DNA of 64,000 nt from the NCBI GenBank assembly GCA_965263295.1, contig OZ253665.1:1600001-1664000 (forward strand). Reading direction: 5' to 3'. Positions 7,127 through 59,940 of this stretch are shown one piece after another. A program made the translations under genes and the position numbers. How positions within the stretch are numbered: the stretch's first letter is position 1; every line of letters begins with the position of its first letter. Source of the stretch: Spirochaetia bacterium (GTDB lineage: Bacteria; Spirochaetota; Spirochaetia; SP-2023). Below the pieces are notes generated by a model. The model ran no database searches and had not been told where the DNA came from. It saw nothing but the letters and a program-made list of their open reading frames with translations.

Positions 7127-8023
7127 TCATTTGGGGTTCTGGCCCGCCGGCAAGCACAACTCAATCAGAAATATCGCCAGCAGCAGCAAAATAAAACCCC
7201 AGAGCGTATTGAAAGTCATTAATTCACCGTAAAACAACACTGAGAACAAGGCACCAAATACAGCTTCCAGAGACAGGATAACCGCCGCCTTGCTCGGCGA
7301 AACTTCGCGCTGGGCGAAATTCTGCAAAAAGAAACACAACAAAGTAGAGAAGAGCCCCAGATAGACGACGACAGTAGCCGCGGCCCAATGCCTCAGCAAC
7401 TGCGGCAAGACAAGATTTTCCATCGACAACGCCATGGACAGAGCAATGGGCCAGGACAGGATGGCGGCCGCGGCAAACTGTAGCAAAACAAAGCTGTCCA
7501 GTTCCAGCTGGCGCGTCTTTAGGAAATGCCCGGCAAAGTAGATGTGCAGAGCAAAAAACAAGGCACAGATCAGGGTTAGAACATCGCCAGTATTGCGCAG
7601 TAGCCAGGACTCACCGTCATAGTTCAGCATGCCGATGCCCAACAAAGCGAGCAGAGCCCCCAATAAGGTCTGTAGCTTAACGGCCTTACGACTGAATATC
7701 ATATAAATAAACGGGGTTATGATAACATTCGTCGCCGTCAGGAAGGCATTTTTGGCCGGAGTGGTGTAGTTCAGTGCAATAGTTTGCAAAATAAAACCCA
7801 GGGCCAAAAAACTGCCGACCAGCAAACCGGGCAGCAGGCCAGTACGGAGTTCCTTCAAACTGCACGGGCGCAAAATGGCGAAGAGCAACGCCGCGAGACT
7901 GAAGCGCAAAGCCGTAATAAAAATGGGGGGCCAATAGTCTACGGCTATGTCAGTGGCAATAAAGCCAAAGCCCCAAACGATGGCCACCAGCAATAAGATC
8001 AGATCATAAGTTACTTTGCTCAT
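7127..8023 (-). CDS. DMT/EamA family transporter
   Basis: About 10 TM segments; WG.GF, LQTIAL.YT, LQNFAQ, LEAVFG motifs. Confidence 0.9.
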   Translation of the reverse strand: MSKVTYDLILLLVAIVWGFGFIATDIAVDYWPPIFITALRFSLAALLFAILRPCSLKELRTGLLPGLLVGSFLALGFILQTIALNYTTPAKNAFLTATNVIITPFIYMIFSRKAVKLQTLLGALLALLGIGMLNYDGESWLLRNTGDVLTLICALFFALHIYFAGHFLKTRQLELDSFVLLQFAAAAILSWPIALSMALSMENLVLPQLLRHWAAATVVVYLGLFSTLLCFFLQNFAQREVSPSKAAVILSLEAVFGALFSVLFYGELMTFNTLWGFILLLLAIFLIELCLPAGQNPK

Positions 8024-8229: not shown

Positions 8230-8236
8230 GCAGCCA

Positions 8237-8310
8237 ATCCTTGGGGTGGTTTACGACCTGAGAGCAAACCCATTGAACCTGATCTGGATCGTACTGGCGT
8301 AGGGAAGGAT
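8237..8310 (+). promoter_or_regulatory. TPP riboswitch (THI box)
   Basis: P1 ATCCTT/AAGGAT enclosing GGGGTG..CTGAGA..ACCC..TGAACCTGATCTGGAT..TAC..GCGTAGGGAA; upstream of thiamine-precursor transport genes. Confidence 0.95.
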
Positions 8311-8406
8311 AAAAAGCCGCTGAACAAGTTCTGTGCCAACAGAAAAAGATTTGAAGTGCGGTTAAATATCATCTATCAGCCTGTTTTTGCTTCGTTCGGT
8401 TTCGCG

Positions 8407-8802: not shown

Positions 8803-9591
8803 ATGCCCAGAGCCATTTTCAAGCTTTTCCAGGCGATTTTACAGCGCTTCGGGGCATCTTTTGCCCTACTATTGTTGCTGTTTGTCGTTTGGGAGGCCGC
8901 CGTTCACCTGTGGCAGATTCCGCGCTACATTCTGCCCAGTCCCAGCGCCATTTTTAGCTTACTTGGAGATGAGGCGATATGCAATCTGCTTTGGAAGCAC
9001 ACACAAATAACCTTGCAGGAGACGGCCTGGGGCCTTCTCAGCTCGGTGCTACTGGCCATCTCTCTCGGCCTGCTGATGGAACGTTTTGTATTCCTGCACC
9101 GCAGTATCTTCCCCTTGCTGGTTTTGTCCCAGAGCCTGCCGAGCATTGTCATCGCCCCCTTATTGATGATTGTCCTCGGCTTTGGCATGGCCACCAAGAT
9201 TACGGTCATCACGCTCTACTGCTTTTTCCCGATCGCAACTAGTTTCAGCAGTGGCTTGCGCAGCCTGGATCAGGACTACCGCCACTTGCTGCACAGCTTC
9301 GGAGCCAATTTTTGGCAGATTGTCGCCAAGGTGCAGTTTCGCTGGGCCTTGCCCAGCTTCTTTGCCGGCTTAAAAATTGCCGCCACCTACAGCGTTTCAG
9401 GTGCTGTCCTTTCGGAATTTTTTGGTTCTAGCAAGGGCCTGGGCATTTACATGCGCAATGCTTTCTCCAGTTCGCGCACCGATGTCTTGTTTTTAATCGC
9501 TTTTATTATTGTCTTCAGTAGCATTGCCCTGGTGGCCATGGTCATTCTCGGTGAACGCCTGCTTTGCCGCCATCAACTCGATATCAAATAG
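8803..9591 (+). CDS. thiX: ABC permease, ThiX/SsuC-like
   Basis: ILPSPS, SQSLP.IVIAPL, EAA-like loop, LP.FFAGLK motifs; riboswitch context. Confidence 0.8.
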   Translation: MPRAIFKLFQAILQRFGASFALLLLLFVVWEAAVHLWQIPRYILPSPSAIFSLLGDEAICNLLWKHTQITLQETAWGLLSSVLLAISLGLLMERFVFLHRSIFPLLVLSQSLPSIVIAPLLMIVLGFGMATKITVITLYCFFPIATSFSSGLRSLDQDYRHLLHSFGANFWQIVAKVQFRWALPSFFAGLKIAATYSVSGAVLSEFFGSSKGLGIYMRNAFSSSRTDVLFLIAFIIVFSSIALVAMVILGERLLCRHQLDIK

Positions 9592-9599
9592 GGAAAAAT

Positions 9600-10679
9600 A
9601 TGGGACACAAAGAAAATTCTAATCAGAAAAATTTTAATCGGGAACTAATTCGAAAACGCAATATTCTCTATTTAATTAGCCTTGCTTCTCTTGTATTGCT
9701 TGCATTGCTTGCCTGTAACCGAAGACAAGCCTCTGCCGGCGCCAAACAAAACGAAGCCCAATCTGCCCCAAGCACAGAAAAACTTGTCTTTGCCCTGGAC
9801 TGGACCCCCAACACAAACCACACGGGCTTGTACGTGGCCCAGAAACGCGGCTATTTTAGAGAGGCGGGGTTAGAGGTTGAGATACGCATGCCGCAGACAA
9901 GCGTAACCCAATTGATTGCCAGCGGCCGCATTCCTTTTGGCATTGGATTTCAAGAATTTGGCACCAGTTCCATGGCCAATGAAGATATCCCGATTATCTC
10001 TGTGGCTGCTGTTTTGCAACACAATACTTCCGGTTTCACTTCCATGACAGACCGCAATATTCTACGGCCGCGCGATTTTGGCGGCAAGCTTTTTGCAAGC
10101 TGGGGAAACCCTTTTGAGATTAGCTTGGTGAAACACTTAATCGCCGCCGATGGCGGCGATCCCAATGACTTTGACAGCGTCAATATTGGAGAAGCCAGCC
10201 TAGCCGGACTGCTGCAGAACAAAGTGGACTACGTAAATACCTTCTATGCCTGGGAAAACATTGGCTTTGATCTCCAGGGCTTAGAAACTAACTTCATCCC
10301 AATAAAGGATCTAGATCCCGTCTTTGACTACTACACGCCAATCATTATCGCCAACCTCAGCTATATTAAGCAGAACCAGGATATATCACAGCGTTTTATC
10401 CAGACAGTAGCTAGAGGCTATGAATATGCCGCCCAAAATCCGGACCAAGCAGCTGAGATCTTACTTGAATATGCTCCCGAACTGGAACGCGAATTAGTGA
10501 TGCGCTCTCAGCGCTATCTCAGCCGCTACTACCTCGATGAAAATGGAGAGTGGGGTCTGCAAAATCCTGAAGTTTGGGATCGCCTGAGTCAATGGATGTT
10601 CGACAATCAACTCATCGATAAAATAGTGCCGACAGACAAGGCCATGACAAACGAATTATTGCGGCCGCAAGCCCAATAA
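9600..10679 (+). CDS. thiY: ThiY/NMT1(THI5)-like substrate-binding lipoprotein
   Basis: Lipobox LLALLAC; LDWTPNTNHTGLYVA, DYYTP motifs. ATG at 9600. Confidence 0.88.
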   Translation: MGHKENSNQKNFNRELIRKRNILYLISLASLVLLALLACNRRQASAGAKQNEAQSAPSTEKLVFALDWTPNTNHTGLYVAQKRGYFREAGLEVEIRMPQTSVTQLIASGRIPFGIGFQEFGTSSMANEDIPIISVAAVLQHNTSGFTSMTDRNILRPRDFGGKLFASWGNPFEISLVKHLIAADGGDPNDFDSVNIGEASLAGLLQNKVDYVNTFYAWENIGFDLQGLETNFIPIKDLDPVFDYYTPIIIANLSYIKQNQDISQRFIQTVARGYEYAAQNPDQAAEILLEYAPELERELVMRSQRYLSRYYLDENGEWGLQNPEVWDRLSQWMFDNQLIDKIVPTDKAMTNELLRPQAQ

Positions 10680-10681
10680 AT

Positions 10682-11443
10682 ATGGCCGATGCTCCAGTGT
10701 CGCAAGGTCGCGCCGCCCTGGAAATCCAGGATCTGAGCAAGAGTTTTGGCCAACTGCAAGTTATTCAGAACTTAAGCTTCAGCTTGCCCTCGCATCAGAC
10801 ATTAGCACTCATCGGGCCTTCCGGCTGCGGTAAATCTAGCTTGCTAAACCTGATCAGCGGTCTCGACTGCGATTACAGTGGCCGGATTTGGCTTGCAGGT
10901 CGCGAACTGCAGCGAACAGAAAAACGTAGAGCCAGTAATGACATCGCGACTCAAGTGGGCTACATGCTTCAAAAAGATTTGTTGTTACCTTGGCGCAATA
11001 TTGAACAAAACGTTTTTTTGCCACAGGAGCTGCATCACTTGAACACATATTCGCGCGCAGAAGTCGACGAACTCTTTGCTCTCTTTGGTCTAGAAGGCTT
11101 CCGCAGGGCCTATCCACGGGAACTCAGTGGCGGAATGCGGCAACGCGCCAATCTACTGCGCACTTACACGCTAAAGAGCGACCTGCTACTACTCGACGAA
11201 CCATTTGGCGCTCTCGACGCTCTAACCAAGCAATCCTTGCAATATTGGTTTCTCGAAATGAGTAAGCTACAACCACGCAGTATTTTGTTGGTAACACACG
11301 ATATTCGTGAAGCCATCTTGCTTGCAGATCAAGTGTTAGCCTTATCAATGCGGCCTTGCCGCAGCTTGGCGCATTTTGACGTCAAAGGAACTATGTACGA
11401 CAAAGAGCTGGAACGAAATATATTCTCGTATCTGCGCAGTTAA
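10682..11443 (+). CDS. thiZ: ABC ATP-binding protein, ThiZ/SsuB-like
   Basis: GPSGCGKS, YMLQKDLLLPW, LSGGMRQR, LLDEPFGALD. Confidence 0.88.
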   Translation: MADAPVSQGRAALEIQDLSKSFGQLQVIQNLSFSLPSHQTLALIGPSGCGKSSLLNLISGLDCDYSGRIWLAGRELQRTEKRRASNDIATQVGYMLQKDLLLPWRNIEQNVFLPQELHHLNTYSRAEVDELFALFGLEGFRRAYPRELSGGMRQRANLLRTYTLKSDLLLLDEPFGALDALTKQSLQYWFLEMSKLQPRSILLVTHDIREAILLADQVLALSMRPCRSLAHFDVKGTMYDKELERNIFSYLRS

Positions 11444-13646: not shown

Positions 13647-13719
13647 TCGGGCTGGGCGGATTCGAACCGCCGACCACAAGTCCCCCAGACTTGTACGCTA
13701 ACCTCTGCGCTACAGCCCG
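13647..13719 (-). tRNA. tRNA-Pro(GGG)
   Basis: CGGGCTGTAGCGCAG...CT-GGG-GG...GGTTCGAATCC...CAGCCCGA cloverleaf; CCA not encoded. Confidence 0.93.
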
Positions 13720-24447: not shown

Positions 24448-24569
24448 TGAACATTTCCTAGTCTAACTTGTACAAGTCCTGTGTTAAGACTTCTTGAATG
24501 TTTATGACTGGTCATAACCTTCTGGCAATTGAGAAGCTTGTTAAAGCAACTCCCGTGTAAAAAATAAAA

Positions 24570-24949
24570 GGGCAGCCCCATAAGCCGGATTCTGTTCTAT
24601 CCTATCATTTATCTAGCCTGACTGTCGCCAGCCAGATCGAGCAATCTACCCATAATGGTAACAGACGAGAAGCCCCATTATTGCTTGATTTTGCTTCAGA
24701 TGAGGTTTACCCTGCCCCGACCCTGTCGCCAAGGGGGCGGTGCGCTCTTACCGCACCATTTCACCCTTACCTGACGCTTCAGTTTACTCCGCAAACTCAA
24801 TCGCCAGGCGGTATATTTTCTGTGGCACTTTCTCTCAAAGCCGCCGGCAGAACCGGCACAGCCCCGTCTGGGAACTACCCAGCATCTCTCTCTGCGAAGC
24901 CCGGACTTTCCTCTGTATCAATTAATACAGCGATAGGTCGGACTGCCCC
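24570..24949 (-). ncRNA. rnpB: RNase P RNA (class A)
   Basis: GAGGAAAGTCCGGGC, GAAAGTGCCACAGAAA, GGGTGAAA..GGTAAGAGC, GGTAAAC, AACAGAATCCGGCTTA; terminal GGGCAG/CTGCCC helix. Confidence 0.97.
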
Positions 24950-32696: not shown

Positions 32697-32886
32697 GTAG
32701 ACTGGCTTAATTAAAGCCGGCTTGAGCACAAACTCCGCTGCCGCAGATTGCCTCTGAGCCGACCCTGGAGTTGCCCCTCTGAACAGTGGCCTTGGACTCA
32801 GCTTGAACTAACCTTGGCCAACCTTGGAACTGACTTTGGATGCCCCGCCTAAACAAGCCGATAAAAGAGAAAGCAAGAATAAGCAA

Positions 32887-35301
32887 ATGAAAAAACGTCT
32901 GATTACTTCGGCCTTGCCGTATGTCAATAATATCCCCCACCTGGGCAACATTATCCAGGTGCTTTCCGCCGATGTCTTTGCCCGTTTTTGCCGCCAACGA
33001 GGTTATGAAACCCTTTATATATGCGGTTCGGACGAATACGGCACGGCCACCGAAACCCGGGCCATGCAAGAGAAAATCAGCCCTAGAGAACTTTGCGATC
33101 GCTTCTACAAAGTCCACAAGGAAATTTATGAGTGGTTCGGCATTGAATTTGACCACTTTGGACGCACATCCTGCCCGCAACAAACAGAAATTGTGCGGCA
33201 AATTTATCGCGAAGTCGAAGCCGCGGGGTTTATCCAAAAGCGAGAGACAGAACAGACCTTCTGCAAGAGCTGCGATCGTTTTCTGGCCGACCGCTATGTC
33301 TACGGCAACTGCCCGCACTGTGGCAGCGTCAATGCCCGTGGCGACCAGTGTGAAGACTGCGGCGCCATGCTCGACCCCACAGAGCTCCTGGAGCCGCGCT
33401 GCGGCATCTGCGGCGACACGCCCGAACGGCGCAGCACTGAGCATTTATTCATCGATCTGCCCAACCTGAAAGGACAACTTGGGGCCTGGATTGACGAGGC
33501 CAGCGCGCGCGGCCGCTGGTCCAAAAACGCTTTGCAGATGACCAAGAGCTGGATCCGCGACGGCTTAAAGCAGCGCTGTATTACCCGCGACCTGAGCTGG
33601 GGTGTGCCTGTTCCCCAGATGCCGGGCAAAGTTTTCTACGTCTGGTTTGATGCTCCGATTGGCTATATTTCAATCACCGCCGAACTGCTACAGCAACGTG
33701 GCGGCGACGCGCAAAGCTGGCGCGAATGGTGGCAAAACCCCGACGAAGTCGAACTGTTCCAGTTCATCGGCAAAGACAACATCCCATTCCACACCGTGCT
33801 GTTCCCCAGCAGCCTGCTCGCTTCCCAGAAAGGAGCGCCAGAGCGCCGCTGGACCATGCTGCACCACATGTCATCCACCGAATATCTGAACTACGAAAGC
33901 GGTAAATTCTCCAAAACTCGCGGCGTGGGAATCTTTGGCAACGACTGCCAAGACACAGGAATCCCCGCCGACTGCTGGCGCTTCTTTTTGTACTACAACC
34001 GCCCAGAAAAGAGCGATTACGAATTCAATTGGACTGAATTCCAGCAGCTTTTAAAGCGCGAGCTGATCGGCAATCTGGGCAACCTGGTCAATCGCACTTT
34101 GAGCTTTTTACAGCGTTTCTTTGGCGGCAAATTACGGCCTTTCGCCGAGATGAGCTCGTCACAGCGGCCCGGCGAAGTTAGCGCATTTTTTGCCGAATTG
34201 CGCCGCCAGCAGGCAGAAATTAGCGCACAACTGGAATGGAGCCAACTCAAGGATGCCCTCCACCGCATCATGGACATGGCCAGCTACGGCAATAAGGTGT
34301 TTCAAGATAAAGAACCATGGGCTCTAGTCAAAAATGACGCCGACTGTGCCCACGCCTGGCTGACGGCCCTGGTCTACCTGATTCATGACCTGAGCATCTG
34401 TTTGCGTCCCTACCTGCCTGAAACAGCGGGCAAGATCGCCAGTTTTCTGGGCCTTGCGGACGAGGCGGCCAGTTTTTCCTGGTCGCAGCTGGGCAATTAT
34501 TCGAGGCTTTACAGCGACAATCCCAAACTGCCTGAGCCTAAAATCCTGTTTCAGCCACTGCGGGATGAGCGCGTCGCCGCGCTGCGGGCGCGCTTTGCCG
34601 GCAGCCAGAATGAGCGCGTGGCGGCCGAGCGCCAACGAGCCGAAAATTCAAATATAAATTCAAATAAATCTGGCGAGGATGCCCAGCTCCGGTACCGCGA
34701 AGCAGGAGAACAAGCCAGTGCCGAAACCTGGGCCAGAGGCATTGAGCTGCGTGTCGGCCGCATTGTCGAGATCGAGCGGCATCCCGATGCCGAACGGCTC
34801 TTTGTCGAGAAGATTGACTGTGGGGAAGAGGCGCCTCGCACCATTGTCTCCGGCCTGGCCGAGCATTACGAGCCAGAGCAACTTTTGGGCCAAACGGTAG
34901 CGGTCGTCGCGAACCTGAAACCGGCCAAATTGCGCGGTGTCAAAAGCATGGGCATGATCCTGGCCGCAAGTCCGTTCAAGGGCGAGGAAGAGGCGGCCCG
35001 CGCCGCGGGCCTGCGCACGGTTGAGGTTCTACATCCACAGGGCGAGCCAGGAGAACGCATTGTGGTTCAAGGGTTTGAAGGCGCCCCATTGCCGGCCTCG
35101 CCAGCTAGGCCAGCCCGGCCGGCCAGTATTGACGATTTCCGGGCCGTACCTTTGTTTCTCGATAACTACCAGGCTAAACTACAGGACACAAGTCAGGCGC
35201 AAGGCATAGGTTTATGTCTGAAAGTACAGCGAAGTTCCGCCAGCGCCGGCTGCGGCCTGGTCCTCGGCAGCCGCGGGTTGCAGCGTGGCGAAATCGGCTG
35301 A
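32887..35301 (+). CDS. metG: methionine--tRNA ligase with C-terminal tRNA-binding domain
   Basis: TSALPYVN..PHLGN, two CxxC knuckles, YVWFDA, FIGKDN, KFSK, OB-fold NLKPAKLRG. ATG 32887. Confidence 0.97.
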   Translation: MKKRLITSALPYVNNIPHLGNIIQVLSADVFARFCRQRGYETLYICGSDEYGTATETRAMQEKISPRELCDRFYKVHKEIYEWFGIEFDHFGRTSCPQQTEIVRQIYREVEAAGFIQKRETEQTFCKSCDRFLADRYVYGNCPHCGSVNARGDQCEDCGAMLDPTELLEPRCGICGDTPERRSTEHLFIDLPNLKGQLGAWIDEASARGRWSKNALQMTKSWIRDGLKQRCITRDLSWGVPVPQMPGKVFYVWFDAPIGYISITAELLQQRGGDAQSWREWWQNPDEVELFQFIGKDNIPFHTVLFPSSLLASQKGAPERRWTMLHHMSSTEYLNYESGKFSKTRGVGIFGNDCQDTGIPADCWRFFLYYNRPEKSDYEFNWTEFQQLLKRELIGNLGNLVNRTLSFLQRFFGGKLRPFAEMSSSQRPGEVSAFFAELRRQQAEISAQLEWSQLKDALHRIMDMASYGNKVFQDKEPWALVKNDADCAHAWLTALVYLIHDLSICLRPYLPETAGKIASFLGLADEAASFSWSQLGNYSRLYSDNPKLPEPKILFQPLRDERVAALRARFAGSQNERVAAERQRAENSNINSNKSGEDAQLRYREAGEQASAETWARGIELRVGRIVEIERHPDAERLFVEKIDCGEEAPRTIVSGLAEHYEPEQLLGQTVAVVANLKPAKLRGVKSMGMILAASPFKGEEEAARAAGLRTVEVLHPQGEPGERIVVQGFEGAPLPASPARPARPASIDDFRAVPLFLDNYQAKLQDTSQAQGIGLCLKVQRSSASAGCGLVLGSRGLQRGEIG

Positions 35302-35302
35302 C

Positions 35303-36691
35303 ATGGAGGCGCAAACGCTGGCAAAGGCCCGTCCAGACGCCAGCTCCGGCTGCGTCTTGGTCTTTGGCAGCTTTGACCTCTTACACAAAGGACACCGCTA
35401 CTTCCTGCGGCACAGTCGGCAGCCAGGTCGGCGCCTGGTGGCCGTACTGGCCCGCGACGAGGAAATTTATCGTTTCAAACAGCGCCAACCGGCCTGGAAC
35501 TATGAGAAGCGCAAGTCCGCCCTGTTGCGCAGTGGACTGGTGGATGAAGTAATCAGCTCCGACGAGCGCCATGGGACTTTTTATGTACTGCAGAGACAAG
35601 ACTGTCCGGTGGCTCAAGTCACCCTGGGAGACGGGCAGGAAGCTCTAAAGATGGCACTGGAAGAATTTTTCTGCCGTCGGGAAGGGCTTCGCTGCCCCAT
35701 CCACTTTGTGGCCCCGCACAAACGCAACTGGTTGAGCAGCACGCGCCTGCATCAATGGCACCAAGCTGCAGCCTATTTTTGCCTTTTGCTTGCCATGCTA
35801 TCGGGCTCCTCTGTTTGGGTAATTGGCAGGTTTGTCGCCTCTTCAGGTCTGGCAGCACCGCTGGCGGCGACCCTGCGCCTGAGCATGCTGGCGATTCTTT
35901 TCTTTATTTGGCAAATTGCACTCAGCATACGCCAGGCAGTGACAGATAAAAAAAACAGCATATGGCAACAGCTGAATGCCAATTTGAAATTGGACATCGC
36001 AAACCTGTGGCAGCCACTGTACTCTGGACTGGGCTTTGCGGTTTACAATCTGTGTTTTTTTTTCGGCTTAGAAGCCATATTTGCGAGTCAGGGAGGAGTT
36101 CTGACCTCTGTATTAATTGTTCTTTTCTCATCCGTTATCTACAGTGTAAGCCATAAAGCAAAACTACAGCAGGCACAAGTATTGGGCTTATTTTTCGGAA
36201 TACTTAGCAGTCTGGTCCTTATGGGTGGGGCAACTTATCTGCAAGGTCTGCTTGCTTATGGACCCCATCCGACGCCTCATTGGCAGATTAGCCTGTTTAT
36301 TGGCACGGCTCTCTCATGGAGCCTCATAAGCCACCTAAGCAGCCAGGTCCCCAAAAGCGACAGCCTGCAGAGATACTCGTTCTACACTCATCTGTTCGGC
36401 GCTCTGTGGACGAGTTGGGGCTGGCTGTGGTACGAGGGGGGCGTGCATTGGCTCTCAATTATGGGCTTGGTGTTTGTCGGCAGCATCCTGTTTACCCCGC
36501 TATACCTTTTGTCCTTAAGGTTCTTGCGCCCCTGCCATGTCGCCGGTTTTTTGTTGCTGAACCCGGTATTTATCCTGGTCATGAGCTGGCTCTTCCTCGC
36601 TGAGCCCTGGACTTGGGACTTGAACCTAGGCACGGCCCTGGCCGTGCTGGCGATCGTGTTGCTCAATCGCAGCCCGACCTGTAAGTCTTAG
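35303..36691 (+). CDS. fusion of an HxGH cytidylyltransferase-superfamily domain (RibL/FAD synthetase-like) and a DMT/EamA transporter
   Basis: N-terminal ~155 aa: FGSFDLLHKGH, VAVLARDE, K.RQP, LVDEV, LGDGQ, LSST. C-terminal ~300 aa: about 10 TM with DMT-like motifs (YNLCFFFGL, LLNPVF..MSWLFLAEP). One uninterrupted ORF. Confidence 0.8.
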   Translation: MEAQTLAKARPDASSGCVLVFGSFDLLHKGHRYFLRHSRQPGRRLVAVLARDEEIYRFKQRQPAWNYEKRKSALLRSGLVDEVISSDERHGTFYVLQRQDCPVAQVTLGDGQEALKMALEEFFCRREGLRCPIHFVAPHKRNWLSSTRLHQWHQAAAYFCLLLAMLSGSSVWVIGRFVASSGLAAPLAATLRLSMLAILFFIWQIALSIRQAVTDKKNSIWQQLNANLKLDIANLWQPLYSGLGFAVYNLCFFFGLEAIFASQGGVLTSVLIVLFSSVIYSVSHKAKLQQAQVLGLFFGILSSLVLMGGATYLQGLLAYGPHPTPHWQISLFIGTALSWSLISHLSSQVPKSDSLQRYSFYTHLFGALWTSWGWLWYEGGVHWLSIMGLVFVGSILFTPLYLLSLRFLRPCHVAGFLLLNPVFILVMSWLFLAEPWTWDLNLGTALAVLAIVLLNRSPTCKS

Positions 36692-39067: not shown

Positions 39068-41212
39068 ATGCCCACTGCAAAAGCTCCTCCCCCACAGTCC
39101 CAAACGAAACAGTCCGAAGCGAACAAGACTCAGGCCGTGCCGGCTCTTCAGAAATCCGTGCACGCTGGGCAGCCCGGACAGCCTGAACAAGCTCAAGGCA
39201 GCTCCAGCCCTTCAACAGTCTGGAATTGGCAAGGGAGAGAGAGCCTGGCCAATTTTCGTCGCAACTGTGATATTTTGCGGCCTCGCGCTCGCGATCTAGT
39301 ACGACAGCTGGAAGCCTGCCCATTTCCTGCCCAACCCGAATCTCCTGCCCAATCCGAATCGGCCATTCTGCCCGCAAACAATGACAGCAATGCCAAGCCA
39401 CTCAATTTGCCCCGCAGCCGTCCCCAAGAACTTATGGCGGCTGAAGCGGCCGCGATCAACGTCCAGAAGAGCCGCGACGGCAATTGGGTTCTGGTTTTTC
39501 GGGGCAAGCCACTGTATTCCCGCTACAAACCCTTGGAAGAGTGTAAAAAATGGATTGCAAAGGACTTGCGCAAAGAGACCAACAGCGCCATCTTCGCGGG
39601 TTTTGGACTCGGCTACCAAATAGAAGAACTATTAAGTCATCGTTCGCGGGCCTTGATCTTGGTCGTCGAATCGAGCTACGCACTTTTTAAAGCGGCTCTG
39701 TGCCTGCGTGATCTCGGCCATCTGCTGAGCAACCCCAAGTTCTTTTGCTCGGTTGGGCCGACAGCCAACCTCGAACTGTATTTGCATCATTTTTCAGAAC
39801 GCAGCTTTCAGTTTTACCAGCTGCAAGCCCTATACAACTGTCAACACAGCTTCTACCAACCACTGCAACGCCGTATCCTCAGCCTCCTCAGTCGGTTTCG
39901 CATCAACGCAAACACCCTAAACCGCTTTGGTCCGCTATGGATTAAAAACATAGCGATGAACCTGTGCGAACTGGCTAGTGCATCTGACGCCGCAGTATTC
40001 TATCAGCGCTTTGAGGGACTTTCCTTTTTGTTGATCGCCGCCGGGCCCTCACTGGAAAGCCTTTTACCACAGCTACCCAAGCTGCGGCAGCGCTTTGTGC
40101 TCTTAGCCGTGGACACGGCCCTGGGCCTCTTACAGCAGCAAGGCATTGAACCCGATTTCGTAATCAGCGTCGACCCACAGTTATTAAATGCGCGTCACTT
40201 TGATTTCTGTGAGGCTCCGCGTTCCATCCTAGTTTCTGAATCTTGCATTTACCCTTCAATTTTCCAGCGCCGCTGGCGTTTCCGTGCCTTGTTCCATTCG
40301 AGCATCCCGCTGATGGAACAATTTGAACGGCAAATCGGCGGCGTGAACAACAACCCGCAGTTCGGCCAGGTCAAGAGTGGCGGCTCTGTCGCCACTGCCG
40401 CCTGGGATTTTGCCCGTAAATGCAAGGCTTCCCGCCTCTATGTCGCGGGCCTTGACCTCTCCTACCCCACCCTGCACTCCCACTGCCGCGGCACAATGTC
40501 TCAGCGCAACAGCCTGATTCGCGGCAACCGTCTCAAACCGGTGGAACACCAGAACTGGCGCGTTACCATATCCGCAGGTGCCCAGCGAGTAAACTCCTGG
40601 CAAGGGCCTACGCTAAAAGTTCTCAGCGATAAACGCATGAATGTCTACCGCAGCTGGCTCGAAGAAAGCCTAAAAAAAACGGATAACTGGCCTAATTATG
40701 TCATTGATGGCTCAGGTGGACGCGCAGCAAGCATTGAAGGGATGGAATTAATCCAGCTAGAAACGGCTCTGCGAGAACCCGAACGCCGCGAAGAAATTGA
40801 ACAGCGCCTAGACTTAATCCTGGGCGAAGCCCGGCAGCCAGCCATGAGCCGGCACGACAAGCTCTTGCATGCCATTGACAAGCTGCTACAGGAAATGGGC
40901 ACAATCTATCGCTGGAGTGAAGAATTACTGGCCCTGCTCTCTTACCGGCGGCGCAACAGCAGTCAGGAAAAACGCCTGCGCGAGTTGCACAGCAAGATAT
41001 CCCGGTCTCACAGCTGCCATATTGTGAGCTTCTTTTTTACCGACAAACTATCACAGATGCTCGGACGCAGTCCAGAACAGGTGCAGGAAGAACAGCTAGA
41101 ACGCGACCGGCTAAAAATCTATCAACGCTTCTACCTGTCGGTCAAATTCCACCTGTATTGGCTGCATACCGCCCAATGCCAGCTACAAGCGCAAAGCGAA
41201 GCGAAGCTTTGA
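39068..41212 (+). CDS. motility associated factor (Maf/DUF115) flagellin glycosyltransferase-like protein
   Basis: LYSRYKP..E, GFGLGY, IAAGPSL, AVDTA, PDFVISVDPQ, GGSVA, GLDLSY. Confidence 0.85.
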   Translation: MPTAKAPPPQSQTKQSEANKTQAVPALQKSVHAGQPGQPEQAQGSSSPSTVWNWQGRESLANFRRNCDILRPRARDLVRQLEACPFPAQPESPAQSESAILPANNDSNAKPLNLPRSRPQELMAAEAAAINVQKSRDGNWVLVFRGKPLYSRYKPLEECKKWIAKDLRKETNSAIFAGFGLGYQIEELLSHRSRALILVVESSYALFKAALCLRDLGHLLSNPKFFCSVGPTANLELYLHHFSERSFQFYQLQALYNCQHSFYQPLQRRILSLLSRFRINANTLNRFGPLWIKNIAMNLCELASASDAAVFYQRFEGLSFLLIAAGPSLESLLPQLPKLRQRFVLLAVDTALGLLQQQGIEPDFVISVDPQLLNARHFDFCEAPRSILVSESCIYPSIFQRRWRFRALFHSSIPLMEQFERQIGGVNNNPQFGQVKSGGSVATAAWDFARKCKASRLYVAGLDLSYPTLHSHCRGTMSQRNSLIRGNRLKPVEHQNWRVTISAGAQRVNSWQGPTLKVLSDKRMNVYRSWLEESLKKTDNWPNYVIDGSGGRAASIEGMELIQLETALREPERREEIEQRLDLILGEARQPAMSRHDKLLHAIDKLLQEMGTIYRWSEELLALLSYRRRNSSQEKRLRELHSKISRSHSCHIVSFFFTDKLSQMLGRSPEQVQEEQLERDRLKIYQRFYLSVKFHLYWLHTAQCQLQAQSEAKL

Positions 41213-41411: not shown

Positions 41412-42227
41412 TCAAAGCCAGTTCAGGGCCCAGTAATAATGGATTCCGGATTCGGGGCACGAGAACTGCCCTTCGGCCGAACCGGCGGGCTTGAAATCTT
41501 GCGCACGCGCTAGAAGACCAGTCCCTTCTAACTTGCTCAATGCCTCGTAGCGACACCAAAGCTGGAAAAAATATTGTTCTGCGATATCTTCTTTTTCTTG
41601 TTGTAGCCGCTGCAATTCCTCTTGTTCTTGCGTAGAAAATAAAATCGGGGCGATGCCCCGAATATTGGGGCGCCGTTTTCGTGTCCGTTCAATATCCAGA
41701 CCTACTTTTTGCTCGCAGCTCAAGGCCAGCGCGACGTAGTCACCCGCATGGGAGAGGTTAAAATAAGGTAAAAAAGAGCTTGCTGCCGGACCGCGGAGGT
41801 AGGGTTTTCCCTGCGCTGGTGCGGCCACTTGCCAGGCGCTTGGGCTGATGAACTTTCGCCGGCGAGGGTTTAGTTGAGCGTCCAGCTGACTGAGGCGGCA
41901 GCGCAGTAACAGCCGTGCTGCGATAAAACGCTGCCGGTCGGCGCGGAACTTGAACTTGTCGGCTCGACTGATTTCTTCTGCGGGCAGGTAGGCCCCCAGT
42001 TCGGACCGAGAGTCGGCGTCGATTTGGAAAAGTGCCAGCAGCTTGGCATAGGGGGCAATGGATAACTCAATTCCGGCGGGCAGCACAGCCGCATCGGGTT
42101 GGAGGCGGAAGTCCACCCTTGACAGCACCCTTGACAGCACCCTTGGCAACACAATTGGCAACACAATTGACAAGACACTTGGCAGCGGCCAGGCGCCATG
42201 AACATCTGCAGAATTCGTATTTGTCAT
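41412..42227 (-). CDS. Sfp-type 4'-phosphopantetheinyl transferase
   Basis: DR.RF..AR.LLR, GKPYL, FNLSHAG, VGLDIE, FF.LW.R.EAL.K..GTGL. Start uncertain (ORF track extends to 42293). Confidence 0.85.
   Translation of the reverse strand: MTNTNSADVHGAWPLPSVLSIVLPIVLPRVLSRVLSRVDFRLQPDAAVLPAGIELSIAPYAKLLALFQIDADSRSELGAYLPAEEISRADKFKFRADRQRFIAARLLLRCRLSQLDAQLNPRRRKFISPSAWQVAAPAQGKPYLRGPAASSFLPYFNLSHAGDYVALALSCEQKVGLDIERTRKRRPNIRGIAPILFSTQEQEELQRLQQEKEDIAEQYFFQLWCRYEALSKLEGTGLLARAQDFKPAGSAEGQFSCPESGIHYYWALNWL
42114..42185. repeat. 6 x 12-bp degenerate tandem repeat in the PPTase N-terminus
   Basis: CACCCTTGACAG x2, CACCCTTGGCAA, CACAATTGGCAA, CACAATTGACAA, GACACTTGGCAG; encodes VLSI-VLPI-VLPR-VLSR-VLSR. 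Confidence 0.85.
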
Positions 42228-42363
42228 ATCGGATATTATATCGGAGTCATACTGGGCATTCACCTTGTTTGAATTTCGGACCCAGGGCGGCAAAATACAA
42301 CCTGTTTTTTTAACTAAGCCCAGAAACAGGCTGCCGGGGCAATGTCCCTTTTAAAAATTTTTC

Positions 42364-42843: not shown

Positions 42844-45111
42844 ATGAAGCAACACAGTGGTAAAGCAGCAAGCGGCAATTCTGGGCCAGTCAACGATCAC
42901 TCGCCTCATGTCCAATTGCCTCAGATTCATTTGCCCTACGTTCACTTGGCTTTTATCAATGCCGTCCAGCTAAGTTCTTACGCCTTGAAACCTTTAGAAA
43001 CTCAAGGCCATGAACAAAAAAATGGCCGCAGTGCCTGGGATCTAAGTCTCCAGCAATTGACTTGTCTACCCCATCGCCAGTTGCCTGAGCCGGTAATTGC
43101 CGGTGGCGGGTTGCCCGCCATCTGTCTGCTGCCTCCGGTTGGGGCCAAGCTGGAGGAAACTGTAGCCGAAGTTTTGCAGCCACAGCGTCTGCGCGAGCGG
43201 GGCCTTTATCCGATACATCTTGATAATTATTCCGAAAGTGCCTTACTTCGTGCTGTACAAAAGGGCATTGAAATTTTTTATCCGTATGCATTCCGTCCCG
43301 ATCCAGTGGCCAGGGCGCTGCAAAAGTACCTGGAATACCTAGAAAATCCCGACGGGGAGACAGGGCGCAGTTCCGTTGCCCAAGCTAAAACAGCTCAGGC
43401 GGTTTTGAGGGCTGTGGATGAAATTCCCAATGAAGGTTTCGATGAAGATGTGGGTCTGCCTTTGGCCATGCGTTTTCAAAAATCACATCTCAATGGGGAA
43501 CAACTTTTACTTTCTGATAATTTGACCTCCCGCCAGATCCATTTTTACTGGTTGGATGCAGATGCGCCATTGTTGTCTCTAGAATTGAGCCGTCAACTCT
43601 ACGACAGGCACCATCGCTATGCCGCTGAGCTGAGTTTTTCAGATATTTATCCGCGGGGTTTAGTGCCTGTGCTTTTTCAGGCGGCGGCGTTGGGGCGCCT
43701 GTGGCGTCTAAAACAAGACCCTGCCTCGCAACCGGACCCCGTGTCGTCAGCTCCTTTTGCACCGGCACACCGAGTTTTAGATTTGCCAGCCATTGCCGAG
43801 CGCGATTTCAATCTCTTTGCCGCAGAACCTCTGCCAGCGGACAAGGATTACCGTCTGTTGCGGCTGGAACTGCGGGCCGGCAATAAACGCCAGTTTCTGA
43901 TTTTGCAAAGTTTATGCCACAGCTTGGGCTTGCAGGCAGAATCGCCTGTTGCTTCTGTTGCGCCTGTTGCTTCTGTTGCGCCTGTTACAATGGGTTCGCC
44001 TGAATCCGCGACGGAGCGATCAGGACGCTATTTAGATATTTTGTCCTGGTTGGAAAATTCACCGCAGAGCCAGCGCAGTTTGCCGCGCTATTTTCCGATC
44101 CAGATCTCTGCTTTCTGTGCCCAGCGCTGTATTTTTTGTCCGTATCCTAAAATTATGAGCTCGGATTTTTTTCCGCCGCAGAGTCAGAGACTGCGGCAGG
44201 AGTTGCAAGGTTGTAGTCAGGCGGCTTTCATGCCGCGCACACTATGGCGCGATTTGCTGTCCGCCATCGCCGACTTTGCTGACGATGCTGTGATAAATCT
44301 TTCGCCCCTGGGTGAGCCCATGTTGCACCCGGAATTCGTCGGTCTAGTCGAAGATTTATTGCAGGGTCCGCAGAACCGGCAAAATACCAGGCTGCAGCTA
44401 CTTATTGAAACCAGCGGAGTTGAGTGGCAAGCCGAAGAGATTCTACACTTGCTGCAACTGGATCGTGAGCAGGGGCGGATCACCTGGATAATTAGTCTCG
44501 ATGCTTTGGATCCTGAATTATACCGGCAACTGCGAGCTCCCGACCAGGAGCTTTCGCCGCTGACGGGGATGACGCCGAGCCAAAAGAAAGCCCATGACAT
44601 GGTGGGATTGTTGCTAAGTTCCAGGCATAGTCAGCCACAACAGGTTTATGTGCAGGCGGTGCGCATGAAAGACAACGAGTCCGATCTGGAGGCATTTTAC
44701 CGTTACTGGGCCGAAGATCTCAAGCCGAGCAATGGTCGTGCGGCACTAGCTCTGCATCATGCCCCCGCCAGGCCTCCGTCGCAAAGGCCCCAGGTCATTG
44801 TGCAGAAGTACAATTCCTATGCGGGTTTGCTGCCGGAGCGTCAGTTGCTGCGACTGGATCCGGTCGAACGTTTCCCCTGTCGTCGTCTAGCTCGTGAGAT
44901 GGTATTTGGGATTGACGGGCAGGTTTATTTGTGCGTGCAGGATTTGCAGCAGGAACTGGCCGGGGAGCTGAAGCAGAACCTGGGCTGCTTTCCCAAACAA
45001 GGCCTAGAAGAACTTTGGCAGCATGGGCACAGTCTGTATCAGCAACATATCAAAGGTCGTTATCCCGGTATTTGCTCTAAATGTGATGAATATTACATTC
45101 ATAATTTCTAA
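42844..45111 (+). CDS. spiro-SPASM protein (radical SAM + SPASM with long N-terminal domain)
   Basis: CAQRCIFC (CxxxCxxC), GEP.LHP, IETSG, C-terminal C..L...C.QD...CSKCDEYY; N-terminal DAPLL and YP.GL.P segments fit the spirochete-specific family. Confidence 0.8.
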   Translation: MKQHSGKAASGNSGPVNDHSPHVQLPQIHLPYVHLAFINAVQLSSYALKPLETQGHEQKNGRSAWDLSLQQLTCLPHRQLPEPVIAGGGLPAICLLPPVGAKLEETVAEVLQPQRLRERGLYPIHLDNYSESALLRAVQKGIEIFYPYAFRPDPVARALQKYLEYLENPDGETGRSSVAQAKTAQAVLRAVDEIPNEGFDEDVGLPLAMRFQKSHLNGEQLLLSDNLTSRQIHFYWLDADAPLLSLELSRQLYDRHHRYAAELSFSDIYPRGLVPVLFQAAALGRLWRLKQDPASQPDPVSSAPFAPAHRVLDLPAIAERDFNLFAAEPLPADKDYRLLRLELRAGNKRQFLILQSLCHSLGLQAESPVASVAPVASVAPVTMGSPESATERSGRYLDILSWLENSPQSQRSLPRYFPIQISAFCAQRCIFCPYPKIMSSDFFPPQSQRLRQELQGCSQAAFMPRTLWRDLLSAIADFADDAVINLSPLGEPMLHPEFVGLVEDLLQGPQNRQNTRLQLLIETSGVEWQAEEILHLLQLDREQGRITWIISLDALDPELYRQLRAPDQELSPLTGMTPSQKKAHDMVGLLLSSRHSQPQQVYVQAVRMKDNESDLEAFYRYWAEDLKPSNGRAALALHHAPARPPSQRPQVIVQKYNSYAGLLPERQLLRLDPVERFPCRRLAREMVFGIDGQVYLCVQDLQQELAGELKQNLGCFPKQGLEELWQHGHSLYQQHIKGRYPGICSKCDEYYIHNF

Positions 45112-51993: not shown

Positions 51994-52067
51994 CGCACCC
52001 TAGAGGATTCGAACCTCTGACCCACAGCTTAGAAGGCTGTTGCTCTATCCAACTGAGCTAAGGGTGC
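51994..52067 (-). tRNA. tRNA-Arg(TCT)
   Basis: GCACCCTTAGCTCAGTTGGATAGAGC...CT-TCT-AA...GGTTCGAATCC..AGGGTGCG; CCA not encoded. Confidence 0.95.

Positions 52068-59866: not shown

Positions 59867-59940
<74 letters not shown>

Follow-up and report, generated by a model that had tools for sequence, protein, structure and literature searches.

The window analysed here, the whole 64,000-nucleotide stretch of the genome of a Spirochaetia bacterium (G000), harbors a gene coding for a 462-residue protein (P0001) in which a nucleotidyltransferase is joined to a membrane transporter (Table 1). The open reading frame starts with an ATG, ends with a TAG (36689-36691) and is separated from the TGA of metG by a single base. 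The ORF, Pfam and a structural model all agree with the preliminary description, which had read here one frame with an HxGH domain and about ten membrane helices, 1 nt behind metG. An alternative in-frame GTG start at 35285 would lengthen the protein by 6 residues. In all three remaining genomes of the genus, metG likewise lies directly 5' of the fused gene, and the two genes are probably co-transcribed; promoter and terminator counts are not above those of shuffled sequence. Elsewhere in the window, a TPP riboswitch is found upstream of an ABC transporter cluster and a second, unrelated DMT gene is transcribed in the opposite direction. Moreover, a phosphopantetheinyl transferase ORF contains short peptide repeats close to the start predicted for it, and a 755-residue radical SAM/SPASM protein has a long N-terminal part without assignment.

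Table 1. Position of the fused gene, its parts and other features in the window
Feature	Position	Strand	Evidence
Fused gene P0001, 462 aa: RibL-like nucleotidyltransferase + EamA/DMT transporter	35303..36691	+	ORF, Pfam, homologues, contigs, model
Nucleotidyltransferase domain, residues 17-150, cytoplasmic; probable FMN adenylyltransferase (FAD synthase)	35351..35752	+	PF01467, 3glv match, clade, RibF exclusion
HxGH motif H28-K29-G30-H31	35384..35395	+	H28, G30, H31 invariant in 102/102 aligned family members
LGDGQ loop, residues 108-112; lineage-specific variant of family G[YHF]DQ	35624..35638	+	Alignment
EamA/DMT domain (residues 153-455) with ten membrane helices predicted and its N and C termini inside	35759..36667	+	Pfam, model, Foldseek, basic residues
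metG (methionyl-tRNA synthetase), ends 1 nt upstream of fused gene	32824..35301	+	
Second, unrelated DMT gene	7130..8023	-	
TPP riboswitch	8232..8322	+	
ABC transporter cluster	8803..11440	+	
RNase P RNA	24565..24949	-	
Maf/MptE-like glycosyltransferase	39068..41212	+	
Phosphopantetheinyl transferase ORF	41412..42293	-	
Radical SAM/SPASM protein	42844..45111	+	
Three tRNA genes	13647..13719, 51994..52067, 59867..59940 (-)		

Pfam recognizes each half of the protein, as expected from the earlier reading: PF01467 matches residues 20-101 with 28 bits (cut-off 21) and PF00892 matches in two stretches with 56.3 bits (cut-off 28.2). All the motifs previously listed for the enzyme half are present, namely FGSFDLLHKGH (20-31), VLARDE (47-54 region), K59-x-R61-x-P63, LVD (79-81), LGDGQ (108-112) and SST (145-147), but the pattern LG.DQ proposed along with them is not matched, as the loop reads G-D-G-Q. 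An AlphaFold2 model built from 24 fused homologues (pLDDT 89, pTM 0.82) predicts a five-stranded Rossmann-like domain and, after it, ten helices of membrane length; a long helix (146-179), the last of the enzyme domain, runs straight into membrane helix 1. Lys and Arg residues in the loops and termini of the transporter half number 12 in five alternate segments and 0 in the other five, indicating a cytoplasmic location for the enzyme domain and for the two ends of the chain.

The fusion is real, and the gene codes for a single intact two-domain protein. Near homologues are fused in 7/7 cases; the six others share 41-58% identity with P0001, and the nearest named one comes from Candidatus Haliotispira prima. 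The fusion is present in all four genomes of the source genus, and contigs from three studies (runs X3, X4 and X7, of which X3 may be the source of the present assembly) span the domain junction without a gap. An assembly or frameshift artefact hiding two separate genes, a concern raised in the preliminary description, is ruled out by these observations. Strain differences within the fused ORF concern few sites (n = 14): seven are synonymous, seven non-synonymous, and none introduces a stop.

The enzyme half is a single-domain HxGH nucleotidyltransferase fold without a kinase. It scores far below the cut-off of all NCBIfam equivalogs, including TIGR01518 for TagD (38-41 bits against 165) and TIGR02199 for HldC/HldE (36-38 bits against 181.5). 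The fused protein reaches 17.3 bits with PF06574 (cut-off 27), the family of RibF-type FMN adenylyltransferases (FMNAT), and shows no PF01687 flavokinase domain. When the enzyme domain is searched as a single sequence against the PDB, cytidylyltransferases rank first (3elb, 1coz and 2b7l). With a 12-row profile, the best single-domain match is 3glv from T. volcanium (95 bits over the full length); TagD obtains 62-63 bits over the first 97 positions only, and the two-domain 3elb a total of 101 bits with 56 for its best domain. The structure 3glv was deposited as an LPS core protein; we take it to be RibL, an assumption supported by a haloarchaeal protein annotated as FAD synthase, whose top PDB match is 3glv (122 bits). 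In addition, an Atlas search gave, as a lead, a cluster named FAD synthase family at 0.88.

In a careful tree of 35 of the 121 rows used for a quick one (long-branch phosphonate and G019 rows were removed), the enzyme domain groups with Woesearchaeota and CPR proteins and with two haloarchaeal FAD synthases, so labelled by annotation and not by assay (support 97/88), whereas TagD and HldC/E form separate clades. The AU test rejects a grouping with Hld (p 0.038) and leaves one with TagD-like enzymes compatible (p 0.16). Structure comparison gives a tie between 3glv (Z 16.8, rmsd 2.1, 122 aligned residues) and TagD 1coz (Z 16.1, rmsd 2.1, 125 aligned), and Foldseek retrieves 2b7l, 3glv and 1coz for the soluble part of the model. 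Profile and tree agree with the earlier preference for RibL over TagD or HldC, but the AU test does not reject the TagD grouping. Both identities are disfavoured by profile scores, by the separate clades and by the lack of a matching pathway context, to which are added partial TagF-like matches only in the case of TagD and the AU rejection in that of HldC/HldE.

The loop reads G-D-G-Q in all seven proteins of the clade of P0001, and G-[YHF]-D-Q in 97 of the 102 family members, the latter being a consensus measured in the present alignment and not a published definition. In this lineage, the Asp conserved within G[YH]DQ is thus displaced (7/7 clade members), so we class the enzyme as one that works like RibL rather than as a strict member. 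The HxGH motif, D52, K59, P63, R70, G109 and Q112 are retained, and in all six pairwise comparisons conservation is higher in the enzyme half (50-72%) than in the transporter half (40-56%).

Among 301 Spirochaetia genomes, the RibL-like clade is present in 38 (profile scores of 156-197 bits, next match 64) and PF06574 in 205. The two co-occur in only two genomes against 25.9 expected, these two being 12% and 6% contaminated, and 36 of the 38 carriers are without PF06574; the associated Fisher p (3e-18) overstates the exclusion, since related genomes are not independent. The carriers fall in eight family codes, and family f50 includes one genome of each FMNAT type. In the three RibF-type loci read, a ribF-like gene lies between truB and rpsO, a slot from which it is gone in carriers G040 and G014, where rpsO directly follows truB; in G000, G002 and G086, the operon is interrupted downstream of truB.

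The genome of the window harbors ribD, ribE, ribBA, ribH, apbE and two FMN-binding targets, and therefore must make FAD, whereas no match to PF06574, PF01687 or PF01982 was found in its single contig (92.6% complete). Of the two genes singled out in the preliminary description, ribF is thus missing and apbE present. The other HxGH-type matches in this genome are a CoaD-like protein and two phosphonate-pathway cytidylyltransferases, as judged from their sequences. The latter are both fusions (G000:C1:112312-113799 (-) and G000:C1:1968231-1969526 (+)), one with a PEP mutase-like domain and the other with an aminotransferase-like domain, the last of which adjoins a decarboxylase-like gene. Taking the tree, the genome distribution and the fusions together, the enzyme half is very probably the FAD synthase of the cell, and the distribution across genomes is stronger evidence for this than profile, tree or structure.

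Many of the sampled Spirochaetia are riboflavin prototrophs, and the origin of FMN is a gap in those, such as G000, that show no riboflavin kinase of a known type. A kinase of either known type, bacterial or archaeal, was not found in any of five genomes tested, and the bacterial domain PF01687 is present in only 26 of the 301 genomes. Neither FMNAT type is present in 60 genomes, 31 of family f28 and 29 others (for example G038, G062, G065, G087 and G122), which hints at a third route or at flavin salvage. RibL-like relatives were collected by a HMMER search of representatives. Among 36 longer representatives of RibL-like proteins, two carry a fused flavokinase domain and are called FAD synthetase by their sources; these RibF-like chimeras are P0119 and P0135, the second from a Parcubacteria record. 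Database annotators already label some bacterial RibL-like members as FAD synthase. Many CPR-type loci (L063, L069, L090, L096 and others) share the gene order greA-lysS-(RibL-like)-serS. Finally, in a Paceibacterota locus (L100:3055-3981 (+)), an EamA gene lies directly 5' of the RibL-like gene; this is 1 of 79 loci parsed and may be due to chance.

The transporter half has two EamA repeats, ten helices and the DMT fold, which place it in the EamA/DMT superfamily. It scores below every NCBIfam equivalog cut-off, and NCBIfam and the Atlas return generic EamA labels only. Foldseek retrieves, for the membrane part, the DMT structures 5i20, LicB (7paf) and nucleotide-sugar carriers, and LicB matches this half weakly in sequence (E 9e-4). 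A 17-row profile identifies the subfamily in 39 of the 301 genomes (at least 196 bits, next match 123). Among the 38 enzyme carriers, the two genes are fused in 12 (two in the source genus and ten in genera g64 and g87), adjacent in five and unlinked in five, and the DMT subfamily is absent from 16. Both genes are therefore present in 22 genomes and linked in 17 of these, across two families. The adjacent genes overlap in the loci read, which include the Oceanispirochaeta records L095 and L127. The DMT subfamily is also present without the enzyme in 17 genomes, where 14 stand-alone loci show no constant neighbour, and was not found in five of the ten genomes of genus g38.

The trees (26 of 75 rows in the careful DMT tree) leave their deep nodes and the order of events in the history of the fusion without resolution. 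Neither a single clade for the fused DMTs (p 0.41) nor one for the linked DMTs (p 0.275) is rejected, so that convergence is not shown. The DMT half of the fusion is strongly diverged in L050 and L076 (G259). A 151-residue stand-alone enzyme from an Olavius symbiont (L086) nests among fused proteins, which suggests a secondary loss of the DMT. RibL-like domains are also found fused to non-DMT families (n = 17), 13 times to domains unrelated to flavin (RNase T, Ham1, NUDIX, PAP2 and others); because this domain fuses so often to unrelated partners, fusion alone is weak evidence for a shared substrate. A complex prediction for the unfused enzyme and DMT of G040 gave no answer (score 0.00).

That the cargo of the DMT is a flavin is less likely than not. 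The riboflavin transporters RibN and ImpX are DMT proteins. RibN is reported to take up riboflavin and FMN, and many RibN genes lack an FMN riboswitch (PMC4418817). FMN riboswitches were found in 43 of 57 genomes, none of them at the DMT gene, and none was detected at the 20 DMT loci scanned. Riboflavin synthase is absent in eight of the 12 fused genomes; its gene ribE is present in 4/12 fused, 5/5 adjacent and 9/17 DMT-only genomes, and these counts show no clean pattern by which the DMT would track riboflavin auxotrophy. All four of the eight fused auxotrophs that we examined have an RfuA-like importer, with 46-47% identity in G086 and G187 and under an FMN riboswitch in G149 and G265; G000 and G002, both riboflavin prototrophs, have no close RfuA match. 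ApbE is encoded by 37/38 enzyme carriers whether the DMT is present or not, and an association of the DMT with it is thus uninformative.

An alternative flavin exporter is widespread in the class. In Listeria, EetB (PF07456) is described as the subunit that binds FAD for export (PMC9973259). It is present in 252 of the 301 genomes and in all 17 genomes with a linked pair, including G000, a distribution that rejects the DMT as a replacement for this exporter. In G000, a 493-residue EetB with an extra membrane region is encoded behind a NusG-II gene (G000:C1:308597-310552 (-), L201). Its C-terminal part may be ECF-T-like, but CbiQ reached only E 0.3 in one of five rows and there was no PDB match. 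In family f50, the RibL-like domain is itself fused to EetB (L202:1444-2466 (-) in G158; L077, L079, L084; P0031), and the gene after it encodes a homologue (E 8e-10) of the C-terminal half of the long EetB of G000. This second fusion is a better-grounded candidate for a make-and-export protein than the DMT fusion.

Several explanations were weighed. The one that we favor, to which we would give an even chance, combines a RibL-type FAD synthase with an accessory DMT exporter working independently. The N-terminal domain would transfer AMP from ATP to FMN in the cytoplasm, as archaeal RibL does, having taken over from a RibF-type enzyme, the gene for which other spirochaetes retain in the truB-rpsO interval. 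The DMT, an intact secondary carrier, would have begun as the next gene downstream of the enzyme, which it still overlaps in some relatives, and loss of the intervening stop codon would have created the fusion; the adjacency is observed, and the direction of change is what we infer. Fusion would fix co-expression and tether the synthase to the cytoplasmic side of the membrane. The DMT would most likely be an EamA-type exporter of small metabolites with no obligatory flavin hand-over, and FAD for periplasmic ApbE would exit via EetB. Independence of the DMT is consistent with its absence from 16 carriers, its unlinked position in five and its occurrence in 17 genomes without the enzyme, as well as with the constant presence of EetB in linked genomes and the flavin-unrelated partners in 13 of 17 other fusions. 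Conversely, the linkage of 17 of 22 pairs, fused or side by side, in two families and the EetB fusion in another lineage argue against it, while the compatible TagD grouping, the tie between 3glv and 1coz and the displaced Asp weigh against the identity assigned to the enzyme. The same linkage and the parallel EetB fusion would instead follow from an FAD synthase coupled to a flavin-carrying DMT, either exporting FAD or FMN made at the mouth of the transporter or importing FMN for the synthase. We regard this possibility, which is the coupling advanced in the preliminary description, as less likely than not. It agrees with an enzyme domain that faces the cytoplasm and continues directly into helix 1, with the uptake of flavins by RibN, with the missing riboflavin synthase in eight of the 12 fused genomes and with the missing kinase, which FMN import would partly offset. 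However, the kinase gap is class-wide (275/301 genomes without PF01687) and does not track the DMT. This coupling is partly weakened by the universal EetB in linked genomes, the RfuA-like importers of the fused auxotrophs and the near-constant ApbE, and also by the riboswitch-free DMT loci, the patchy DMT in genus g38 and a possible single origin of the fusion. Its full form, a single-chain FAD synthase-DMT that exports FAD or FMN or imports FMN by the same logic as the EetB fusion, with FMN supplied by a route other than the two known riboflavin kinases, likewise seems less likely than not.

Two further readings question the enzyme itself. The GDGQ lineage may have drifted to another phosphorylated substrate, or work poorly, FAD then coming from a third enzyme that is not recognized. 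The Asp displacement in every clade member fits such a drift, as do the 29 genomes outside f28 with neither FMNAT type, in which an unrecognized FAD route may exist; it is nevertheless improbable, given that the enzyme half is the better conserved one in every comparison, that it retains HxGH and the other residues listed above and that G000 offers no HxGH-type match beyond the CoaD-like protein and the two cytidylyltransferases of the phosphonate pathway. The other reading, also proposed earlier by analogy with licBC, would have the DMT take up a small alcohol, free or phosphorylated, for the enzyme to convert into a CDP-alcohol destined for a surface polymer. The cytidylyltransferases heading the single-sequence searches, the weak LicB match, the AU result for TagD and the phosphonate biosynthesis genes of G000 point in this direction. 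It loses ground because none of 14 fused genomes shows LicD, the TagF-like matches seen in six of the 14 are no more than partial and the exclusion of RibF is left unexplained; moreover, the TIGR01518 score is low and the 72 neighbours scanned include no glycopolymer genes. We consider it very improbable.

Compared with known systems, the enzyme of P0001 resembles archaeal RibL (M. jannaschii, Entamoeba EhFADS, 3glv) as a small monofunctional HxGH nucleotidyltransferase with VARD and a terminal SS, in the same tree clade, without a kinase domain and present where the RibF-type FMNAT is missing. It differs by being bacterial, by its fusion to a ten-helix transporter and by GDGQ in place of G[YH]DQ, and the archaeal partner kinase RibK was not found alongside it in the five genomes tested. 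According to PMC5397151, Bacteria have no RibL orthologs. The RibL-type EhFADS of Entamoeba has been characterized and is active although it lacks the two cysteines to which the air sensitivity of archaeal RibL is linked (PMC11423594). A kinase-less FADS-type II is described in Treponema in part of PMC2972280; bacterial RibF and this spirochaete enzyme belong to the same HxGH superfamily and probably catalyze the same reaction, but P0001 is below the PF06574 cut-off, has no flavokinase module, lies at a different locus and shows a nearly exclusive distribution with respect to them in the 301 genomes. TagD and HldC/HldE share the fold and the Pfam family, TagD even tying with 3glv by structure, yet P0001 is separated from them by scores, clades and pathway context. 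The transporter half has the two EamA repeats and ten helices of carriers such as the YddG-type (5i20), LicB, RibN and ImpX, with fold matches to 5i20 and 7paf, and unlike them is attached to an enzyme domain, has no FMN riboswitch and falls below the equivalog cut-offs. The EetB-FmnA ECF exporter of Listeria, as presented in part of PMC9973259, is a precedent for FAD export to ApbE; the DMT of P0001 is of a different transporter class, and the EetB homologue of G000 lies elsewhere, beside the NusG-II gene.

Both halves of P0001 belong to known kinds, and their joined architecture is an undescribed variant. As the preliminary description had supposed, no account of the fusion was found in the open literature, nor was one of RibL replacing RibF in spirochaetes; Data Set S1 of PMC9973259 may list the enzyme-EetB fusion. 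Parcubacteria are stated, in a passage of PMC4508563, to lack ribKL/ribF. At the scale of whole genomes, the present data are evidence for the displacement of RibF by an archaeal-type FAD synthase in several lineages of bacteria, and the fusion offers a small and cheap test of whether a DMT tethered to an FAD-making enzyme carries FMN or FAD.
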